Source: Xanthomonas campestris pv. campestris str. ATCC 33913
GTDB taxonomy: Bacteria > Pseudomonadota > Gammaproteobacteria > Xanthomonadales > Xanthomonadaceae
DNA length: 32,000 nucleotides
NCBI RefSeq assembly: GCF_000007145.1
Contig: NC_003902.1
Location: 1,147,436 to 1,179,435 of the forward strand
Direction of reading: 5' to 3'
Below, piece by piece: positions 5,644 through 29,689 of this stretch. A program made the position numbers and the translations under genes. The number at the start of each line of letters is the position of its first letter. Position 1 is the stretch's first letter. The notes under the pieces were generated by a model. It searched no databases and had not been told where the DNA came from. It was given only the letters and a program-made list of their open reading frames with translations.

Positions 5644-6237
5644 ATGTCCTCCCTTCTAGAACAACTGATCGAAGCCTTCCGGGTGCTGCCCGGTGTGGGT
5701 CAGAAGTCGGCGCAGCGCATGGCGTACCACGTGCTCGAGCGTGAGCGCGAGGGTGGGCGGCGGCTGGCGGCGGCGTTGGCCAATGCGGTGGAGAAGGTGG
5801 GCCATTGCGTGCAATGCCGCGACTTCACCGAGTCGGAGGTGTGCGCGATCTGCGCCAATTCCGGCCGTGATCGGCAGCAGCTGTGCGTGGTGGAATCGCC
5901 CGCCGATCGCCTGGCGATCGAGCACGCCACCGGCTACCGCGGGGTGTATTTCATCCTGCAGGGGCGTTTGTCGCCGCTGGATGGTATCGGCCCGCGTGAG
6001 TTGGGGCTGGACCGCCTGGCCGAGCGTCTGGCAGCGGGCGAGGTCACCGAAATGATCATCGCCACCAACGCCACCGTCGAGGGCGAGGCCACCGCGCATT
6101 ACCTGGCGCAACTGGCCCGCCAACACAGCGTGCGCCCCAGCCGGCTTGCACAAGGCATGCCGCTGGGCGGCGAGCTGGAGTACGTGGATCGCGGCACGCT
6201 GTCGCATGCCTTCGGCACGCGTAGTGAGGTGCTTTAA
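5644..6237 (+). CDS. recR: recombination protein RecR
   Basis: '[24 protein letters not shown]' (HhH), a Cys4 Zn finger '[16 protein letters not shown]', and a Toprim region. Confidence 0.95.
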
Positions 6238-6242
6238 GCGCC

Positions 6243-6337
6243 GGGAATCGTAAGTCGTGAATGGGGAATCGGAGAAGCAAAGTCAGAAGCCCGCGCGGTA
6301 AGCTCTTGCGATTCCCCAATCCCGATTCTCGATTCCC
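6243..6337. repeat. REP-like imperfect palindrome built from GGGAATC-type heptads (copy 2)
   Basis: 'GGGAATCGTAAGTCGTGAATGGGGAATCGGAGAAGC ... GCTCTTGCGATTCCCCAATCCCGATTCTCGATTCCC'. It shares the 'CTCTTGCGATTCCCCAATCCC' core with copy 1 and fills the recR-HIT spacer. Confidence 0.8.
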
Positions 6338-6342
6338 TTCCT

Positions 6343-6693
6343 ATGACCGACACCATTTTCGGCAAGATCATTCGTCGCGAAATTCCCGCCACCATCGTCT
6401 ATGAAGACGACGAGGTGCTGGGATTCGAGGACATCGCACCGCAGGCGCCGGTGCATGTGCTCTTCATTCCCAAGTTGCATGCGATCCCGACCCTGGACGA
6501 TGTACCGCCGGAGCAGGCGCTGCTGGTCGGCAAGTTGGCGCTGGCGGCCGCGGCATATGCGCGCGAAAAAGGGCTAGCGCAGGACGGTTACCGCATTGTC
6601 ATGAACTGCCGCGAGCATGCTGGGCAGACCGTATTCCATATCCATCTGCATCTGCTGGCCGGTGCGCCGCTGGGGCGTTTCGGTACGCCGTGA
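6343..6693 (+). CDS. histidine triad (HIT) nucleotide-binding protein
   Basis: 116-aa protein 'IFGKIIRREIPA', 'PQAPVHVLFIPK', and the HIT motif 'HIHLHLL'. Confidence 0.9.
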   Translation: MTDTIFGKIIRREIPATIVYEDDEVLGFEDIAPQAPVHVLFIPKLHAIPTLDDVPPEQALLVGKLALAAAAYAREKGLAQDGYRIVMNCREHAGQTVFHIHLHLLAGAPLGRFGTP

Positions 6694-6741
6694 TCGATGT
6701 GGTTAGGCCCAGAGGATCCTGCTGCGTCGGACGCCACATAC

Positions 6742-6773
6742 AAAAACGCCGCTCCCTGTGAGCGGCGTTTTTG
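6742..6773. terminator. bidirectional rho-independent terminator between convergent HIT and slp genes
   Basis: 'AAAAACGCCGCTC-CCTGT-GAGCGGCGTTTTT': a GC-rich stem flanked by an A-run and a T-run. Confidence 0.8.
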
Positions 6774-6794
6774 TGTCATCTCAGCAGTGGCTGG

Positions 6795-7331
6795 TTACCA
6801 CCAACCGCGGCCCCAACCGCCACCCCAGCGCGGGCCCCACGGACCCCACGGGTCGCCCCAGGGGCCGTACGGGTAGGCCGGCACCACATCGACCTCGCGC
6901 ACCTGCGGCCACAGGTAGACGACATCGGCGGCCACTTTGGGCAGCTTGTAGTCGTACTCGCCGATCTTGGTGGTTTCGTAGCCTTCGATCTTGCCGATGA
7001 AGGTCACTTCGCGGCCTGGCTCGAACACCGCCGGGTCGTAGAAGCCCGCGCGGCAGGCGAGGAAGCGGCCATCGCTGGCATCCACCGCATTGCGGTCCGG
7101 GCGGCCGCTGGCGTTGAGCGGGCGCGAGATCAGCTCGAAGCAGGTCTGGCCCTGGGCCGGTTTGGTCTGGATGATCTTGCCGCCCCAGCGCACCGAGGTG
7201 CCGACCTGTGCACTGGCGGTCGAGTCGCTCGGGCTGACCGTGGGGAACTGGCCCTGCAACGGCTTGGGCGCCGTGGCACAGGCAGCGAGCCCGAGGACAG
7301 CGATGACTGGAAGAAGAAAACGGGTACTCAT
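6795..7331 (-). CDS. outer-membrane lipoprotein, Slp family, with a Gly/Trp/Pro-rich C-terminal tail
   Basis: Signal peptide plus lipobox 'VLGLAAC'. The Slp-like core is 'VRWGGKIIQ...GRFLACRAGFYDP'. The start ATG overlaps the stop of the upstream transglutaminase gene (ATGA at 7328-7331). Confidence 0.8.
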   Translation of the reverse strand: MSTRFLLPVIAVLGLAACATAPKPLQGQFPTVSPSDSTASAQVGTSVRWGGKIIQTKPAQGQTCFELISRPLNASGRPDRNAVDASDGRFLACRAGFYDPAVFEPGREVTFIGKIEGYETTKIGEYDYKLPKVAADVVYLWPQVREVDVVPAYPYGPWGDPWGPWGPRWGGGWGRGWW

Positions 7332-18499: not shown

Positions 18500-18960
18500 T
18501 TTGAGGTTCTGTTGGTGCAAAGAGCCTTGCCATTGCGGGCTGATGTGTCAGTGAGTCTCCCTGACGCAGTGCAGCCGCCGCACAGTCTTGATCGACACAC
18601 GCAACGTTCTCGCACGCCACTAGGGCCTGGATGTCCTGCCTCCACCGCCGCAGCGTGGCGGTGATGCGGTCCCTGCGGGGAATGTAGCCGGCGCAGCGCG
18701 CTGCAGGCTCAGGCGGTCAAGCTGTTGCGGGTGATGGCCTGCGGGCAGGCGGGGTAGAGCGTTGTCAGGGGCACGCCACTGATGCTCAGCGACAGCGCGT
18801 TCGTGTGCGGACTGCCTGCGCCCAGGTGGTCAAGTAACCGCGCGTTTCGCGCATCTGACCCGCCTCTCTTCCACGCCCAGCTGACGCGCCAGCGCGCCGC
18901 CCGGCGATCTACGCGACCACCGCGTTGAAGCTGTCGATGCCGTGCCTGGACTGGCTCCTC
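18500..18960 (-). pseudogene. probable decayed gene remnant (multiple frames, unknown family)
   Basis: No intact ORF, but protein-like stretches appear in different minus-strand frames: 'GALARQLGVEERRVRCAKRAV' (HTH-like), 'LDHLGAGSPHTNALSLSISGVPLTTLYPA' and 'GYIPRRDRITATLRRWRQDIQALVACENVACVD'. The boundaries and even the strand are tentative. Confidence 0.25.
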
Positions 18961-19100
18961 AACGGCGACATTGACCTGCTCAGACCCTGCCGGCAGACGC
19001 CTGTGCGATGCGGGCGTTGGCGCCTTGCATACGCGTCAGTACAGACGGCCGGGCGATTTCGCACGTATTATCCCGGCTCGATTTTTGTAGGCAGCAACGC

Positions 19101-20045
19101 GTGACCGAATCTACGCTCGCTTTCGTGTTTCCCGGCCAGGGCTCGCAGTCCCTGGGCATGCTGGCTGAACTTGCCGAACTGCATCCGCAGATCCGCGAGA
19201 CCTTCGTCGAGGCCTCCGATGGCGCCGGCGTCGATCTGTGGGCCCTGTCGCAGGGCGGCCCGGAAGAGATGCTCAACCGCACCGAATACACCCAGCCGGC
19301 GTTGCTGGCCGCCGGTGTGGCGGTGTGGCGCCTGTGGAACGCGCAGCGCGGCGAACGACCGGCGGTGCTGGCCGGCCATAGCCTTGGCGAGTACACCGCA
19401 CTGGTCGCTGCCGGCGCCTTGTCGCTGCACGATGGTGCCCATCTGGTGCGGCTGCGCGGGCAGTTCATGCAGGCAGCGGCGCCCGCCGGTGTCGGCGCGA
19501 TGGCCGCGGTGCTGGGCGCCGAGGATGCGCTGGTGCGCGAGGTCTGTGTCGAGGCCTCGGGCAGCCAGGTGGTGGTGCCGGCCAACTTCAATTCGCCCGG
19601 TCAGATTGTGATCGGTGGCGATGCGGCGGCGGTGGATCGCGCGCTGGCGTTGCTGGCCGAGCGTGGCGTGCGCAAGGCGGTCAAGCTGGCGGTGAGCGTG
19701 CCGTCGCACACTCCGCTGATGCGCGAGGCGGCCAACCAGTTGGGTGAGGCGATGGCCGGGTTGACCTGGCACACGCCGCAGATTCCGGTGGTGCAGAATG
19801 TCGACGCGCAGGTGCACGCCGGCCACGAGGCGATCCGCCAGGCCCTGGTCGAGCAGCTGTATCTGCCGGTGCAGTGGACCGGCTGCGTGCAGGCGCTGGC
19901 CGCGCAGGGCATCAGCCGGATCGCCGAATGCGGCCCGGGCAAGGTGCTGAGCGGGCTGATCAAACGTATCGACAAAAGCCTGGATGCCCGTTCGCTCGCG
20001 ACCCCGGCCGATTACGCCGGCGCGCTGGATGCGTGGGCGCACTGA
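19101..20045 (+). CDS. fabD: malonyl-CoA:ACP transacylase
   Basis: A GTG start gives 'VTESTLAFVFPGQGSQSLGML'. The active site is 'GHSLGEYTALV'. 314 aa. Confidence 0.93.
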   Translation: MTESTLAFVFPGQGSQSLGMLAELAELHPQIRETFVEASDGAGVDLWALSQGGPEEMLNRTEYTQPALLAAGVAVWRLWNAQRGERPAVLAGHSLGEYTALVAAGALSLHDGAHLVRLRGQFMQAAAPAGVGAMAAVLGAEDALVREVCVEASGSQVVVPANFNSPGQIVIGGDAAAVDRALALLAERGVRKAVKLAVSVPSHTPLMREAANQLGEAMAGLTWHTPQIPVVQNVDAQVHAGHEAIRQALVEQLYLPVQWTGCVQALAAQGISRIAECGPGKVLSGLIKRIDKSLDARSLATPADYAGALDAWAH

Positions 20046-26711: not shown

Positions 26712-26739
26712 TTGACGATCTCCGCCGCTGCCCTATAAT
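26712..26739 (+). promoter_or_regulatory. strong sigma-70-like promoter for tRNA-Val
   Basis: TTGACG (26712-26717), a 16-nt spacer, then TATAAT (26734-26739), about 18 nt upstream of the tRNA 5' end. Confidence 0.6.
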
Positions 26740-26756: not shown

Positions 26757-26831
26757 GGGCGGTTAGCTCAGCGGTAGAGCATTGCCTTCACACGGCAAGG
26801 GTCACAGGTTCGATCCCTGTACCGCCCACCA
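26757..26831 (+). tRNA. tRNA-Val (anticodon CAC), encoded CCA
   Basis: The acceptor GGGCGGT pairs with ACCGCCC, followed by A-CCA. The D-arm is GCTC-AGCGGTA-GAGC, the anticodon stem-loop is TTGCC-TTCACAC-GGCAA, and the T-arm is ACAGG-TTCGATC-CCTGT. Confidence 0.93.
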
Positions 26832-26848
26832 TATTTGTAGTGTTTACG

Positions 26849-26877
26849 AAAAAAACCGGCCAATGGCCGGTTTTTTT
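26849..26877 (+). terminator. rho-independent terminator after tRNA-Val
   Basis: A7-CCGGCC-AAT-GGCCGG-T7. Confidence 0.8.
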
Positions 26878-26923
26878 CGTAAATGCGAGGTAAGTGCAGT
26901 GGGCCATGGACAGGGGGGGTTCT

Positions 26924-27799
26924 ATGTTCCAGATCGTGCAAGTTCCAAGTGGTGCTGCTGACTTGCCAGAGCAGATGGGAACCAAAGCGAAGTTCTGGTT
27001 TGACGACAGTCGTCGTCTCTTTAAGGAGGGGCGACCTGGGACTGGGGAAAACTGGGCAGAGGTGATTGCAGCCGAGCTAGCGGCCCTCCTCGGTTTGCCG
27101 CACGCTACGTATAGCTTGGCAGAGTATGAAGGCCGACGAGGTGTGGTTACCGAATCCTTTGTTCCATCTGGCGCGCGGCTCATCCTTGGCAATGAGCTGA
27201 TTGGCTTCGCAGCCCGTGAGACGGTGAGTAGGCACACTAGGGGCCAAGCACACACCATTGGCCGCCTGAGCAGCCTCCTGAATAGACCGCAGGTTGCGCT
27301 TCCAAGCGGATGGGTCTCACCGACGTCCTTTTTCAACGCGGCAGATGTGATGTCTGGATATCTTCTGCTCGATGCTTTGATCGCAAATCAGGATAGGCAT
27401 GAGGAGAACTGGGGCCTCATCAACTCACACGGTGCAATCTACCTCGCGCCGACGTTTGATCACGCTTCAAGTCTAGGTAGGAATGAGACAGATCAAAGGC
27501 GAATACAGAAGTTGGACGCAAACCATCCTGATCATGGTGTTCTTGGATATGCAAGGAGAGCAAAGGTGCCCATTTACGACGGCATGGGCCCATTGCAATC
27601 AGGTGAAGCTTTTTTTGCATTTGCCAGATCATGCCCAGATAAAGGAGCTTACTGGCTAAATCGACTCCATGAGCTGGATCCGAGTAGTTTCTTGGCACTG
27701 CTAAATAGAATTCCTGTAGGTTGGATTACAGATCCAGCCCGCCGCTTTGCTGCCGAGCTCCTCAAGGTCAACAGAGACCGACTTTTGGACGAAAAATGA
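26924..27799 (+). CDS. HipA-family Ser/Thr protein kinase core (HipT-like; lacks the HipA N-terminal subdomain)
   Basis: The catalytic loop 'DALIANQDRHEENWGL' fits the D-x-H-x-x-N pattern of HipA_C. The Mg-binding segment is 'LAPTFDHASSLG', and the Gly-rich loop equivalent is 'EQMGTKAKFWF'. ATG 26924 is preceded by AGGGGGG. The ORF opens at 26894. Confidence 0.8.
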   Translation: MFQIVQVPSGAADLPEQMGTKAKFWFDDSRRLFKEGRPGTGENWAEVIAAELAALLGLPHATYSLAEYEGRRGVVTESFVPSGARLILGNELIGFAARETVSRHTRGQAHTIGRLSSLLNRPQVALPSGWVSPTSFFNAADVMSGYLLLDALIANQDRHEENWGLINSHGAIYLAPTFDHASSLGRNETDQRRIQKLDANHPDHGVLGYARRAKVPIYDGMGPLQSGEAFFAFARSCPDKGAYWLNRLHELDPSSFLALLNRIPVGWITDPARRFAAELLKVNRDRLLDEK

Positions 27800-28530
27800 A
27801 ATCCCTCTACCTCGCCATTCAACAACATGAAAGTCGTCGCTGGTCTCCTGTAGCTAAGGTTACAAAGAACGGAGGTGTCTATCGTCTGGTGTATACGAAG
27901 GGCGCATGGGAGGTGCCGGGCTTCAGCGGATTTGCGCGCATGGAAGATCTGTATCAAGAGTACCGCTCTGCGGAAATTTTTCCGATCTTGAAAAATCGGA
28001 CTTTGCCTCGGTCGCGGCCTGAGTATCAAAATTATATTTTATGGCTTGGTCTCTCACCAGAAGAGCATGACGAACTTGACGAGTTGGCGAGATCTGGCGG
28101 TATTCGTGCTACAGACCAAATCGAGCTGATTCCTGCGCCAGAGAGGAAAGAAGACGGAAGCTTTGAGGCTTTCTTTTTTGTGCGTGGCATCAGTTACATT
28201 CCGGGAACCGCTGATATCGACTTGAAAATCGGTGATCGCCTCTTTGTCATGAAGGACTTTCAGAACGAGCAGGATTCCGCGGCATTGCTTTTGCGCACTG
28301 GAGATCCGGTGTCAGTAGTTGGGTACGCTCCGAGGTACTACAGTCACGACCTTTCCCGTTTAGCGGAACTTTGCCCGCCTCAGGATCTTTTGGTGACAGT
28401 TGAGCGGCTTAATAATAATGCTCCTGCTGCTTATAAGGTGCTTTGTAAGGTCGTGGCACCTTGGCCGGCGGGCTTCGATTTTTTCGGCTCCCATGTGTTT
28501 GATGAAGTGCCGAAAGCTCCGGTGTCTTAG
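27796..28530 (+). CDS. HipS-like (HipA N-subdomain-like) domain fused to a HIRAN domain; putative partner/antitoxin of the upstream kinase
   Basis: The ATG overlaps the kinase stop (ATGA at 27796-27799). The N-terminal ~115 aa 'LYLAIQQHESRRWSPVAKVTKNGGVYRLVYTKGA...IFPILKNRTLPRSRPEYQNYILWLGLSPEEHDELDELARSGGIRATDQIELIP' follows the HipA N-terminal pattern (..pfF.NLLPEg..r..l...lGls..d.f.lL...G.D..Ga..l.p). The C-terminal 'FFVRGISY...LKIGDRLFVMKDFQNEQDSAALLLRTGDPVSVVGYAPRYYSHDLSRL' follows the HIRAN pattern. Both assignments are from memory. Confidence 0.7.
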   Translation: MKSLYLAIQQHESRRWSPVAKVTKNGGVYRLVYTKGAWEVPGFSGFARMEDLYQEYRSAEIFPILKNRTLPRSRPEYQNYILWLGLSPEEHDELDELARSGGIRATDQIELIPAPERKEDGSFEAFFFVRGISYIPGTADIDLKIGDRLFVMKDFQNEQDSAALLLRTGDPVSVVGYAPRYYSHDLSRLAELCPPQDLLVTVERLNNNAPAAYKVLCKVVAPWPAGFDFFGSHVFDEVPKAPVS

Positions 28531-28927
28531 ATGGTTTGAGCCTTTACTGATTATGCTCTTATGGTGTCCTTGGCTTTAGTAGATTTCGTCTACGGAATTA
28601 AGTCCGGAGGCTGGGATGGGTAGCAACGATGAGCTATCTCCGAAGACTCATGCGTTCGTTCAGGCGTTCGTTGCAGGAATTTAGTCAGCGAGCCGCGGTG
28701 GTGGTCGCGTCGGCGCGTTGCATGCACACGCAACGTACACCCGCGTAAGAAGTTTTTCACCTGCCGGTAGCGGTGGTGCGCGGAAGGTAGCGCGCAGATG
28801 CGGCGGCGGTGCGGATGGGGTGGGGGCGAAGCGCTGCGATGGGAACGATCGGTTCACTTGCAGGCAGCCCCCGACAGTCCGGCCGCAGCGCAGCGACCCT
28901 GACGCGCTACTCGACGGAGACAGACCC

Positions 28928-29152
28928 ATGCGTACGCAAAGTCGAATGATGGTGGCTGGAACACGCCGGTTTCCGGTGTATGAGGTGCGCGTCAGCGAGC
29001 AGGGTGCGGTGACGCGCCATTACACGGTCGGCGAGCTGGGCGGGTGCTTCGGCGATCTGGCCGCTGCAGCCGCGTCGGCACAGAGCCTGCTGGACACGGC
29101 CGATCTGGTGATGCCGCCTGCGCCCGGCGATCTGCAGCTGGCGTTGCGCTGA
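28928..29152 (+). CDS. hypothetical small protein (74 aa)
   Basis: GGAG lies 8 nt upstream of ATG 28928. The high-GC ORF reads 'MRTQSRMMVAGTRRFPVYEVRVSEQGAVTRHYTVGELGG...'. I recognise no family. The longer 144-aa version from 28718 looks non-coding. Confidence 0.35.
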   Translation: MRTQSRMMVAGTRRFPVYEVRVSEQGAVTRHYTVGELGGCFGDLAAAAASAQSLLDTADLVMPPAPGDLQLALR

Positions 29153-29359
29153 CGCTGCGCCTCCTTCGGCGGCCAGCCGCCGTGCGGTCGCTGTAGCGGT
29201 GTGCTGTGCGTTCGACGCGTGCACTGCGGCGTGCGTCACCTTTTTGCCAGGCTGGTGAATCCCAACCGGCCGCAATGGGATTGCGGTGGCGTCTGCTTAT
29301 TGCAGGGCCGTGGGAGAACCGCCATCCTGCTCGGCCCTGGATTCAACGAAGGAGTGGCG

Positions 29360-29689
29360 ATGAAGACGCTGCTTGGAACTGCATTGGCTGCGAGCCTGCT
29401 CCTGCTGGCCGGTTGCGCCAAAGACATGGGCGAGGAATTCGTGGGCAAATGGGTCAACGCCAAGGCGCCGAAGAACGTGCTGAGCATCGAGCACAACGGC
29501 GAAAGCTTCATCATTCGCGATACCCGGCCCGAGCTGTTCGGCAACGGGGTGAAGACCAAGAACTATCCGGCGGTACTGCGTGGCGATGTGCTGCAGGTTT
29601 CCAATGGCGTGGGCACGATCAACTACGCCATCGATCAGTCGACCGGCAACCTGAGCACCGGCGAATCCGAGTACACACCGGTCAAGTAG
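29360..29689 (+). CDS. small secreted lipoprotein (109 aa)
   Basis: GGAG precedes ATG 29360. The signal peptide and lipobox are 'MKTLLGTALAASLLLLAGC'. Confidence 0.7.
   Translation: MKTLLGTALAASLLLLAGCAKDMGEEFVGKWVNAKAPKNVLSIEHNGESFIIRDTRPELFGNGVKTKNYPAVLRGDVLQVSNGVGTINYAIDQSTGNLSTGESEYTPVK

Follow-up and report, generated by a model that had tools for sequence, protein, structure and literature searches.

Directly downstream of a tRNA-Val gene in Xanthomonas campestris pv. campestris ATCC 33913 there is a 1.85 kb islet that carries two genes on the + strand, hipI followed by hipN. All positions refer to the window, i.e. the whole stretch of 32,000 nucleotides that was analysed. The features of the locus are:

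26712..26739, + strand: sigma-70-like promoter of tRNA-Val, TTGACG-16-TATAAT (11/12 matches)
26757..26831, + strand: tRNA-Val(CAC), the integration target (ARAGORN; Rfam tRNA, 70 bits)
26832..26899, + strand: att-derived left end of the foreign element, TATTTGTAG ... hairpin ... GTAAGTGCAG
26924..27799, + strand: hipI, a 291-aa short HipA-family Ser/Thr kinase core without N-subdomain-1
27796..28530, + strand: hipN, ATG start, 244 aa, putative antitoxin or regulator
27796..28146, + strand: N-domain of HipN, residues 1-117, with a HipA N-subdomain-1 / HipS-like fold (Foldseek)
28165..28461, + strand: HIRAN domain of HipN, residues 124-222 (PF08797, 43.5 bits, cut-off 24.7)
28531..28684, + strand: AT-rich non-coding tail of the islet (alignment to empty sites)

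The composition of the islet (26832-28684) departs strongly from its surroundings. Its GC is 0.512, compared with 0.668 +/- 0.020 (minimum 0.615) in 529 windows of the same size from the rest of the 32,000 nt, which corresponds to z = -7.9. Further, GC3 is 0.51 in hipI and hipN, against 0.82-0.85 in pilZ, holB, yceG and prpR. In an alignment to four empty-site strains the islet begins with the first base after tRNA-Val(CAC) and ends at about 28684/28685, and the native sequence starts again at about 28685 (GTCAGCG...). From the end of the tRNA to a conserved anchor there are 1898 bp with the islet and 93-101 bp in the empty sites. An earlier note, made from the sequence alone, had described an AT-rich islet of about 1.85 kb right after the tRNA; its coordinates were accurate, as the empty-site alignment gives the same borders.

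The left-end block of the islet (26832..26899) is absent from the empty sites. It contains a perfect 41-nt palindromic, terminator-like hairpin (26843-26883) with 20-nt arms that are 100% complementary. The hairpin had been taken for the terminator of tRNA-Val, a reading that is rejected here: the empty-site strains carry another terminator, GGCCACCcttgcGGTGGCC, and the hairpin is part of the foreign DNA, not of tRNA-Val. The displaced native terminator was also sought in the window, and GGCCACCcttgcGGTGGCC is not found anywhere in it. The promoter of tRNA-Val, on the other side of the tRNA, is native DNA that is kept in the empty-site strains. It is the sole consensus promoter detected near the module; the stretch between the hairpin and hipI holds none.

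Beyond hipI and hipN the islet contains no third gene. Its antisense and other small ORFs have no Pfam match, and the absence of an HTH gene, also claimed earlier, is upheld. Rfam finds no RNA family in the islet apart from the tRNA, and the non-coding tail has no match in the other loci. The islet has neither an integrase nor an attR copy, i.e. a second tRNA 3' end.

The open reading frame of hipI opens at a GTG at 26894 (301 aa), with another start at ATG 26906 (297 aa). The ATG at 26924 (291 aa) is preceded by a G-rich, Shine-Dalgarno-like run and agrees with the N-termini of homologues in an alignment. The Pfam model HipA_C matches residues 53-196 (in the numbering of the 301-aa GTG-start ORF) with 28.2 bits, slightly below the cut-off of 30.5; the same model is matched by 48/48 aligned members of the HipI family. 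There is no Pfam match of HipI to Couple_hipA, and an NCBIfam search gave no useful match. The Gly-rich loop near the N terminus is intact (G19-T-K-A-K23). In the alignment of 48 sequences the catalytic D157-R-H159-E-E-N162 and D179 are invariant, the latter within the Mg-binding motif F178-D179-H-A-S-S, and the predicted D-x-H-x-x-N motif thus aligns. The PADLOC model PDC-M03A covers nearly the full length (E 2e-102, 340.7 bits). Judged by its sequence HipI is a kinase of the HipA family, reduced to a short core in which the catalytic residues are intact; as the earlier note had proposed, it lacks the N-subdomain.

When the HipI family profile is compared with the PDB, it reaches CtkA (JHP940, Helicobacter pylori, PDB 3akj) with E 9e-12 over about 250 residues, and neither HipA nor HipT. 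By sequence profile CtkA is the closest solved structure, and the DRHEEN and FDHASS motifs of HipI align to DRHNGN and FDCGS in CtkA. A CtkA fragment also matches the PDC-M03A models (E 3.9e-32). In the literature CtkA is described as a Ser/Thr kinase, more precisely a pro-inflammatory one that acts on host cells, and no HipN-like partner has been reported for it. It is likewise a variable cargo gene of a mobile element, the tfs3 ICE.

The start codon of hipN overlaps the stop codon of hipI by 4 nt (ATGA, 27796-27799), as had been noticed before, and from this overlap the two genes are likely to be translationally coupled. HipN is matched over nearly its full length by PDC-M03B (E 2.5e-80, 267.6 bits). 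From the predicted structures HipN has two domains, the first with a HipA N-subdomain-1/HipS-like fold and the second a HIRAN domain.

The first of these domains is seen in the fold rather than in the sequence of HipN itself. Couple_hipA gives no Pfam match in the HipN of the islet and weak matches in 10/43 of its relatives, and a HipN profile run against PDB sequences finds the HIRAN protein 3k2y only, not the HipS-like domain. An hhalign comparison with the single HipA sequence is collinear over HipA residues 12-109 but statistically weak. As Foldseek with the model of full-length HipN gave HIRAN matches only, the N-domain was modelled alone. The AF2 model of residues 1-117 has a pLDDT of 92.5, and its sole convincing Foldseek match is E. 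coli HipA (3tpd), with prob 0.99, TMq 0.62, 113 columns and E 0.047. The predicted fold thereby bears out the HipS-like domain of the earlier note, although HipS chains were not retrieved with this model. Nor was a counterpart of the Trp65 plug of HipS identified in HipN.

The HIRAN domain, on the other hand, is found both by Pfam and by structure. In the model of full-length HipN this part has the same fold as the HIRAN domains of HLTF (4s0n, 4xzf) and of Lactobacillus plantarum lp_0118 (3k2y); in Foldseek the match to HLTF HIRAN 4s0n/4xzg has an E of about 2e-4 and that to 3k2y a TMt of 0.73. An hhalign comparison with the single HLTF sequence is collinear but weak (E 0.013). N157 and D160 hardly vary, and R130-G131 and G176-Y177 are conserved as well; HipN thus keeps the N-x-x-D motif of HLTF-type HIRAN domains (N157...D160) and their G-Y/H position. 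The residues of the 3'-OH pocket of HLTF are R-Y-Y, N-x-Y-D, H-x-x-K and N-A-F. Compared with this pocket the stacking Tyr, i.e. the Tyr of NPYD, is Gln in HipN, and the equivalent of Phe142 is Pro (NNNAP). Most bacterial HIRAN domains lack this Phe142 of HLTF, as noted by Gerdes et al. 2021 (PMC8262856). [quoted passage not shown]

The islet is almost certainly a hipIN module, a pair listed by PADLOC under the name PDC-M03. The hipIN organisation was described by Gerdes et al. 2021, mBio (PMC8262856), which is the phylogenomic survey with HIRAN-containing neighbours that the earlier note mentioned. As in the islet, the kinase of hipIN is short, lacks N-subdomain-1 and has a Gly-rich loop near the N terminus; it comes first, the HipS-like and HIRAN protein comes second, and there is no HTH gene. 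The 291 aa of HipI fall within the short-core size of hipIN, about 280-320 aa. In PDC-M03 a HipA-like kinase (A) is paired with a HIRAN protein (B), and both models are matched here by adjacent genes; PDC-M03 is a PADLOC candidate predicted from genomic context, not a validated system. Our literature search yielded no experimental work on hipIN or on PDC-M03. The gene order and the missing HipB, which had been considered unusual, are what defines hipIN. The earlier novelty claim was therefore overstated, since this organisation is already published and catalogued. With its known architecture the islet bears out what had already been predicted in print, and it adds no new kind of system. What is new here is the integration hotspot, the homology of the left end to a repeat in another strain, the conservation of the islet above its flanks and the purifying selection.

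The set of Gerdes et al. 2021 (PMC8262856) included only 14 hipIN modules, and the accessible part of its supplement text has no Xanthomonas entry. In that survey the placement of the kinase in a HipI subclade of main clade XI belongs to the definition of hipIN. The family is large, with hundreds of clusters at 50% identity. HipI is encoded directly upstream of HipN in 50/56 genome loci; at these 50 junctions a 4-nt overlap is seen in 17 and the genes overlap or abut in 27. Orphan HipN genes exist as well (loci L022 and L039).

Compared with the classical systems the islet differs in several ways. In hipBA, HipA is full-length at about 440 aa, carries N-subdomain-1 in cis and is preceded by HipB, while the islet has a kinase of 291 aa and no HipB. 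The hipBST system (E. coli O127:H6, Legionella, Haemophilus), made up of the kinase HipT, the antitoxin HipS and the repressor HipB, likewise has the kinase core and the N-subdomain-1-like protein on separate polypeptides. However, its order is hipB-hipS-hipT; in the islet the order is reversed with the kinase first, there are two genes instead of three and HipB is missing, and the HipS-like module is fused to HIRAN. The HipL proteins (Gerdes et al. 2021, PMC8262856) are natural fusions with the same three domains, kinase, HipS-like and HIRAN, in the same order in one polypeptide, where the islet has two overlapping genes.

The content of the pilZ-tRNA-Val-prpR site varies between strains of X. 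campestris: it is empty, or filled by a prophage, by Helicase+DUF2290, by hipIN or by a hipIN disrupted by an IS. This site is an integration hotspot, and the proposal that the islet is foreign and polymorphic is supported by the comparison of loci. In one of the strains (locus L017) a block homologous to the left end of the islet occurs twice, in both cases attached to a duplicate of the 3' half of the tRNA, and this left-end-like, att-derived repeat precedes Helicase+DUF2290, a validated anti-phage system in the same slot. The phage regions of L017 and L069 show no homology in tblastx, so these are different phages. The best reading of the islet is that it is the remnant of a tRNA-integrated element whose right part has been deleted; despite the missing integrase and attR, this reading rests on the homology of the left end to the att repeat in L017.

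Between X. campestris strains the islet is 99.6-100% identical, while the flanks differ by 2-4%. An ancient, vertically inherited hipIN resident is rejected, given that within X. campestris the conservation of the islet far exceeds that of the flanking DNA. Between species the synonymous divergence of the islet is higher than that of the flanks, which a weaker codon bias could also explain. X. fragariae and X. sp. NCPPB 1128 carry orthologous pairs at this site too. In general hipIN has lower GC than its flanks (22/24 loci). It adjoins a phage capsid gene in S. terrae and GmrSD_N/PIN_8 genes in Paraburkholderia, has the integrase as its neighbour in PM2-like Vibrio prophages and is also found on plasmids. 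Some pairs lie between housekeeping genes, e.g. in X. arboricola. No relative was found in the viral contigs that were scanned.

With no integrase, attR or detected promoter, and with an IS-disrupted copy in one strain, the islet might be taken for a decaying, non-functional leftover of a deleted prophage or island. We find this highly improbable. Both ORFs are intact and the catalytic residues invariant, 460 indexed blocks of the assembly collection contain exactly this HipN sequence, and the orthologous pairs at the same site also speak against decay. Further, dN/dS is 0.05 for hipI and 0.08 for hipN, which indicates that both genes are under purifying selection.

Taken as a whole, the locus is probably best explained as a hipIN module for DNA-end-triggered abortive infection, the sole surviving cargo of an element integrated at tRNA-Val(CAC). 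DNA-end sensing and abortive infection were already proposed for hipIN by Gerdes et al. 2021 (PMC8262856). According to this explanation an element would have integrated into the 3' end of tRNA-Val(CAC), with hipIN as the only cargo left. By analogy with HipT/HipS, HipI would be a toxin that is neutralised by HipN and that arrests growth by phosphorylating a factor essential for translation, most likely an aminoacyl-tRNA synthetase. The HIRAN domain, by analogy with that of HLTF, would bind free DNA 3' ends, probably single-stranded; candidate ligands are phage genome ends or replication intermediates. Binding of a DNA end would then release or rearrange HipN, upon which HipI would fire and the infection be aborted. 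The full mechanism of HipI and HipN is built on analogy, and we give it slightly less than an even chance. [quoted passage not shown]

It is also conceivable, if fairly unlikely, that hipIN is an addiction (post-segregational killing) toxin-antitoxin pair that stabilises its mobile element and does not sense phage. HipN would then be a labile antitoxin, and HIRAN only a DNA tether or a stand-in for the autoregulation by HipB. The compact, bicistronic and overlapping genes and their carriage on plasmids, prophages and in ICE-like contexts agree with addiction, and hipIN is the last surviving piece of a deleted element, as expected of an addictive module. However, the PADLOC candidate was built from defence-island context, a validated anti-phage system occupies the same slot in another strain, and the HIRAN domain of HLTF binds DNA ends rather than operators. 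Addiction and defence are not mutually exclusive roles for hipIN.

The HipS-like domain need not inhibit, because E. coli HipA shows activity even though it carries its N-subdomain. HipN could be an N-subdomain in trans that completes HipI and brings it to DNA 3' ends, where the kinase would phosphorylate DNA-bound host or phage proteins as a DNA-damage or replication signal, and not act as a toxin. The N-domain of HipN superposes on the N-subdomain of an active HipA, the natural HipL fusions exist, the model of full-length HipN is rigid (pTM 0.87), and in eukaryotes HIRAN domains bring enzymes to stalled forks. We nevertheless regard such a signalling role as improbable: in HipBST, the only split system that has been tested, the antitoxin is the HipS module (according to literature cited in PMC8262856), and a polymorphic, low-GC islet in a hotspot agrees better with a conflict system than with a housekeeping signalling kinase.

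[quoted passage not shown] CtkA of H. pylori would then belong to the same family of conflict systems and not be primarily a host-directed effector. A HIRAN domain that gates a Hip kinase would, if shown, link the DNA-end reader of eukaryotic replication forks to bacterial immunity. X. campestris provides a natural test bed, as close relatives differ in the content of one tRNA-Val site.

The islet is set apart by its base composition. Its GC (26832-28684) is 0.512, against 0.668 +/- 0.020, with a minimum of 0.615, in the 529 windows of islet size outside it in the 32-kb window (z = -7.9); no other dip there is as deep, and the drop begins at the first base past the tRNA, just where the earlier note had placed the break. 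GC3 is 0.51 in both hipI and hipN, and 0.82-0.85 in pilZ, holB, yceG and prpR. The features concerned are:

26712-26739, near-consensus promoter (TTGACG-16-TATAAT) ahead of tRNA-Val(CAC)
26757-26831, + strand, tRNA-Val(CAC) (ARAGORN, Rfam)
26924-27799, + strand, hipI, 291 aa from the ATG at 26924; the ORF opens earlier, at GTG 26894
27796-28530, + strand, hipN, ATG start, 244 aa

Public annotations give hipI 291 or 297 aa; the ATG is supported by a G-rich ribosome-binding stretch 5' of it and by the N terminus MFQIVQVP, which matches homologues (MYPVIQVP and similar). The start of hipN overlaps the stop of hipI in ATGA. As had been noted from the sequence, these are the only two genes and no HTH (HipB) gene is present: the remaining ORFs of the islet have no Pfam match, and Rfam finds no family in the region except the tRNA. 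About 40 nt separate hipI from a palindromic hairpin, and no sigma-70-like promoter was detected between them (26843-26923). Expression may come from read-through from the strong tRNA-Val promoter, or from a non-consensus promoter.

The first product, HipI, is a short Hip kinase and apparently active. It has no N-subdomain-1 and scores 28.2 bits (E 1.8e-6) against Pfam HipA_C, slightly below the 30.5-bit cut-off; all 48 relatives in our alignment match HipA_C, 23 of them match HipA_2, and the PADLOC HipA-like kinase model PDC-M03A is matched over the full length (E 2e-102). The expected D-x-H-x-x-N motif aligns: D157-R-H159-E-E-N162 and F178-D179-H-A-S-S are invariant or nearly so in the 48 sequences, and Thr20 of the Gly-rich loop (residues 19-23, GTKAK) is nearly invariant. 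The family comprises at least 1916 proteins at E <= 0.001 in a word-indexed search. Against PDB sequences its profile reached neither HipA nor HipT; the closest solved structure was H. pylori CtkA (JHP940, 3akj; E 9e-12 over ~250 residues), where DRHEEN aligns with DRHNGN and FDHASS with FDCGS. A 231-residue CtkA fragment also matches the PDC-M03A models (E 3.9e-32). CtkA has been described as a host-directed pro-inflammatory kinase, and its gene is variable cargo of the tfs3 ICE, in a slot where it alternates with a Fic-family gene; CtkA and HipI may be members of one family of conflict-system kinases.

An AlphaFold2 model of full-length HipN, computed from 43 homologues, has high confidence (pLDDT 92.1, pTM 0.87). 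That the protein ends in a HIRAN domain was borne out: residues 124-222 match Pfam HIRAN with 43.5 bits, the whole protein matches PADLOC PDC-M03B (E 2.5e-80), and the C-terminal half of the model retrieves HLTF HIRAN structures (E ~2e-4) and L. plantarum lp_0118 (TM 0.73 on target). Relatives show little or no variation at N157 and D160 (QNEQD), R130-G131 and G176-Y177, which line up, in an alignment with weak statistics, with the HLTF motifs NPYD, RYY and GH, whose residue roles are known from the literature. The equivalent of HLTF Phe142 is a proline (NNNAP); most bacterial HIRAN domains have no such Phe, which has been read as favouring binding of ssDNA (Gerdes et al., PMC8262856).

The N-terminal half resisted assignment by sequence. 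Couple_hipA has no match in HipN of the window and only weak ones in 10 of 43 relatives (best E 5.8e-4), the HipN profile retrieved neither HipS nor HipA from PDB sequences, and hhalign against HipA residues 12-109 was collinear, but with weak statistics. Residues 1-117 were therefore modelled separately (pLDDT 92.5), and Foldseek returned a single convincing match, E. coli HipA (3tpd; prob 0.99, TM 0.62 on query, 113 columns, rmsd 3.6 A, E 0.047), with all others at prob <= 0.21 and TM <= 0.26. It is the predicted fold, and not sequence statistics, that supports the HipS-like N-domain proposed earlier.

The earlier note also held the architecture to be unusual. In fact it had been described, as hipIN (Gerdes et al. 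2021, mBio, PMC8262856) and as PADLOC candidate defence system PDC-M03. The pair in the window agrees with hipIN in all structural features tested and with both PDC-M03 profiles, and differs from hipBA and hipBST: there is no HipB, the kinase gene comes first, and the HipS-like domain is fused to HIRAN. The fold of this domain is carried in cis in HipA and supplied as antitoxin HipS in HipBST, while here it lies on the separate HipN. Since the 14 hipIN modules of Gerdes et al. have no Xanthomonas entry in the searched text of the supplement, the pair is a new member of a described family, and not a new architecture. In later papers HipI/HIRAN pairs still figure only as genes with a predicted antitoxin or defence role, and a literature search found no experimental study of hipIN or PDC-M03.

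The two genes occur as a unit. At E <= 1e-30 HipN relatives form 535 clusters at 50% identity, mostly ~245 aa long, and a HipI relative lies directly 5' on the same strand in 50 of 56 loci encoding one; among the other six, two are cut at contig ends and at least two are true orphans. Of these 50 pairs, 27 have genes that overlap or abut, including 17 with a 4-nt overlap, and nearly all the rest are separated by less than 30 nt; the overlapping arrangement suggests translational coupling. Compared with the X. fragariae orthologues, dN/dS is 0.05 (hipI) and 0.08 (hipN), so both genes are under purifying selection; this selection, together with the conservation, speaks against the pair being a dead relic.

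In 22 of 24 hipIN loci GC is below that of the surroundings, and in 7 of the 24 loci scanned for tRNA genes (L019 to L072) such a gene lies 5' of the pair within the 8-kb flank, sometimes ~0.1-0.6 kb away. Several contexts of the pair are mobile: in Paraburkholderia its neighbours are GmrSD_N, PIN_8 and the gene of a giant ddrB-ParB protein, in Vibrio it adjoins the integrase of 14-kb PM2-like prophages, and it is carried by cyanobacterial and actinobacterial plasmids. In X. arboricola (locus L079, 7001-8661) it lies among ordinary genes, flanked by a gene for an aldehyde dehydrogenase and by the pga operon; this is a second, diverged hipIN (47% identity to HipI) at an unrelated locus, also with a 4-nt overlap. 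The orphans (L022, 5920-7643; L039, 1238-2710) argue that a kinase may not always be needed for HipN to act. Judged by eye, one has a PP2C-type Ser/Thr phosphatase-like protein directly 5', and the other lies 3' of a small antitoxin/PIN (VapBC-like) pair.

Across X. campestris strains the pilZ-tRNA-Val-prpR locus does vary, between tRNA-Val and two small conserved ORFs 5' of prpR. Loci L009-L018 were fetched from other assemblies with the exact PilZ protein as anchor (pilZ at 6001-6354). The states are:

empty: L010, L012, L014, L015
prophage (DUF4224, Lambda_tail_I and HDPD genes): L009, L011, L016, L018
UvrD-like helicase and DUF2290 protein, then phage capsid genes: L017
intact hipIN: L001-L008
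disrupted hipIN: L013

In X. campestris the tRNA-Val(CAC) site 3' of pilZ is an integration hotspot with at least five states. In L013 (7229-7516) an IS, its interior masked as N and recognised by its terminal inverted repeats GATACGCCCAGGGTTTCC, has acted together with a deletion, so that hipI has lost its 3' part and hipN its 5' part. The two small ORFs (approximately 28930-29154 and 29360-29689, transferred from 74-aa and 109-aa genes called in L001) are native, kept in empty-site strains and have no Pfam match; the second has a lipoprotein-like signal at its start (MKTLLGTALAASLLLLAGC). Outside the window, L001 has a ParD/ParE toxin-antitoxin pair (18723-19279) in the propionate cluster, 3' of prpR-prpB-prpC-acnD, with the aconitase gene and prpF on either side.

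The stretch between the tRNA end and a conserved anchor measures 1898 bp in the occupied site and 93-101 bp in the empty one. In strain alignments the left junction coincides exactly with the tRNA 3' end, and the right one falls at ~28684/28685. The islet replaces ~55 bp of native spacer. Lost with this spacer is the native terminator (GGCCACCcttgcGGTGGCC), no copy of which occurs anywhere in the window; the perfect 41-nt palindrome at 26843-26883, previously taken for the terminator of the tRNA, is therefore foreign DNA. The entire left-end block (26832-26899) has a homologous counterpart in L017. There (6531-6870) a 55-nt hairpin block joined to the tRNA-Val 3' half is present in two tandem copies ~60 nt apart, the second followed by the helicase and DUF2290 genes. 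As each copy joins a tRNA 3' half, the doubling is an att-site signature, and successive integrations seem to have left it as their scar. The L017 gene pair matches the PADLOC Helicase and DUF2290 models (E 3.5e-289 and 8.4e-63), a combination that is a validated anti-phage system. Because the left-end block is common to both, hipIN and Helicase+DUF2290 are alternative cargos of one slot, each preceded by this att-derived sequence. Neither an integrase nor a second tRNA 3' end is present in the window, and the native terminator is missing. The simplest reading is of an element that integrated into the tRNA and whose part beyond hipN, attR included, was subsequently lost.

Among X. campestris strains the islet is 99.6-100% identical even where the flanks show 2-4% difference from the window (L003 and L013, the latter found via PilZ and so not picked for its hipN being conserved), as would follow from a recent spread within the species. 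At the same pilZ-tRNA-Val site X. fragariae has the pair at 84-85% protein identity and X. sp. NCPPB 1128 at 77-78%. Between X. campestris and X. fragariae pS is higher for hipI (0.69) and hipN (0.61) than for pilZ (0.44) and holB (0.41), which fits separate arrivals at a common hotspot, although weaker codon bias could contribute. Stenotrophomonas terrae also has the pair at this site (46-53% identity); there a 469-aa protein (L069, 5685-7094) is encoded between the tRNA-Val hairpin and hipIN, with a phage capsid gene just 3'. It has no Pfam match and weak similarity to PADLOC HEC-07 (E 5e-6), and the locus is possibly a three-gene variant or has a neighbouring defence gene.

HipA phosphorylates GltX and HipT phosphorylates TrpS. 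By analogy, HipI would stop growth by phosphorylating a translation factor. We further infer that the HipN N-domain would keep HipI inactive, and that HIRAN would sense free DNA 3' ends of phage or other invading DNA, lifting the inhibition; the same DNA-end-sensing hypothesis was proposed by Gerdes et al. (PMC8262856). HipN could instead have a targeting role, or the pair could be a plain addiction module of its carrier element. The genomic context, with a defence system in the same hotspot in L017, strengthens the defence reading. The locus offers a well-delimited, naturally polymorphic case of a still uncharacterised family of candidate defence or toxin-antitoxin systems.
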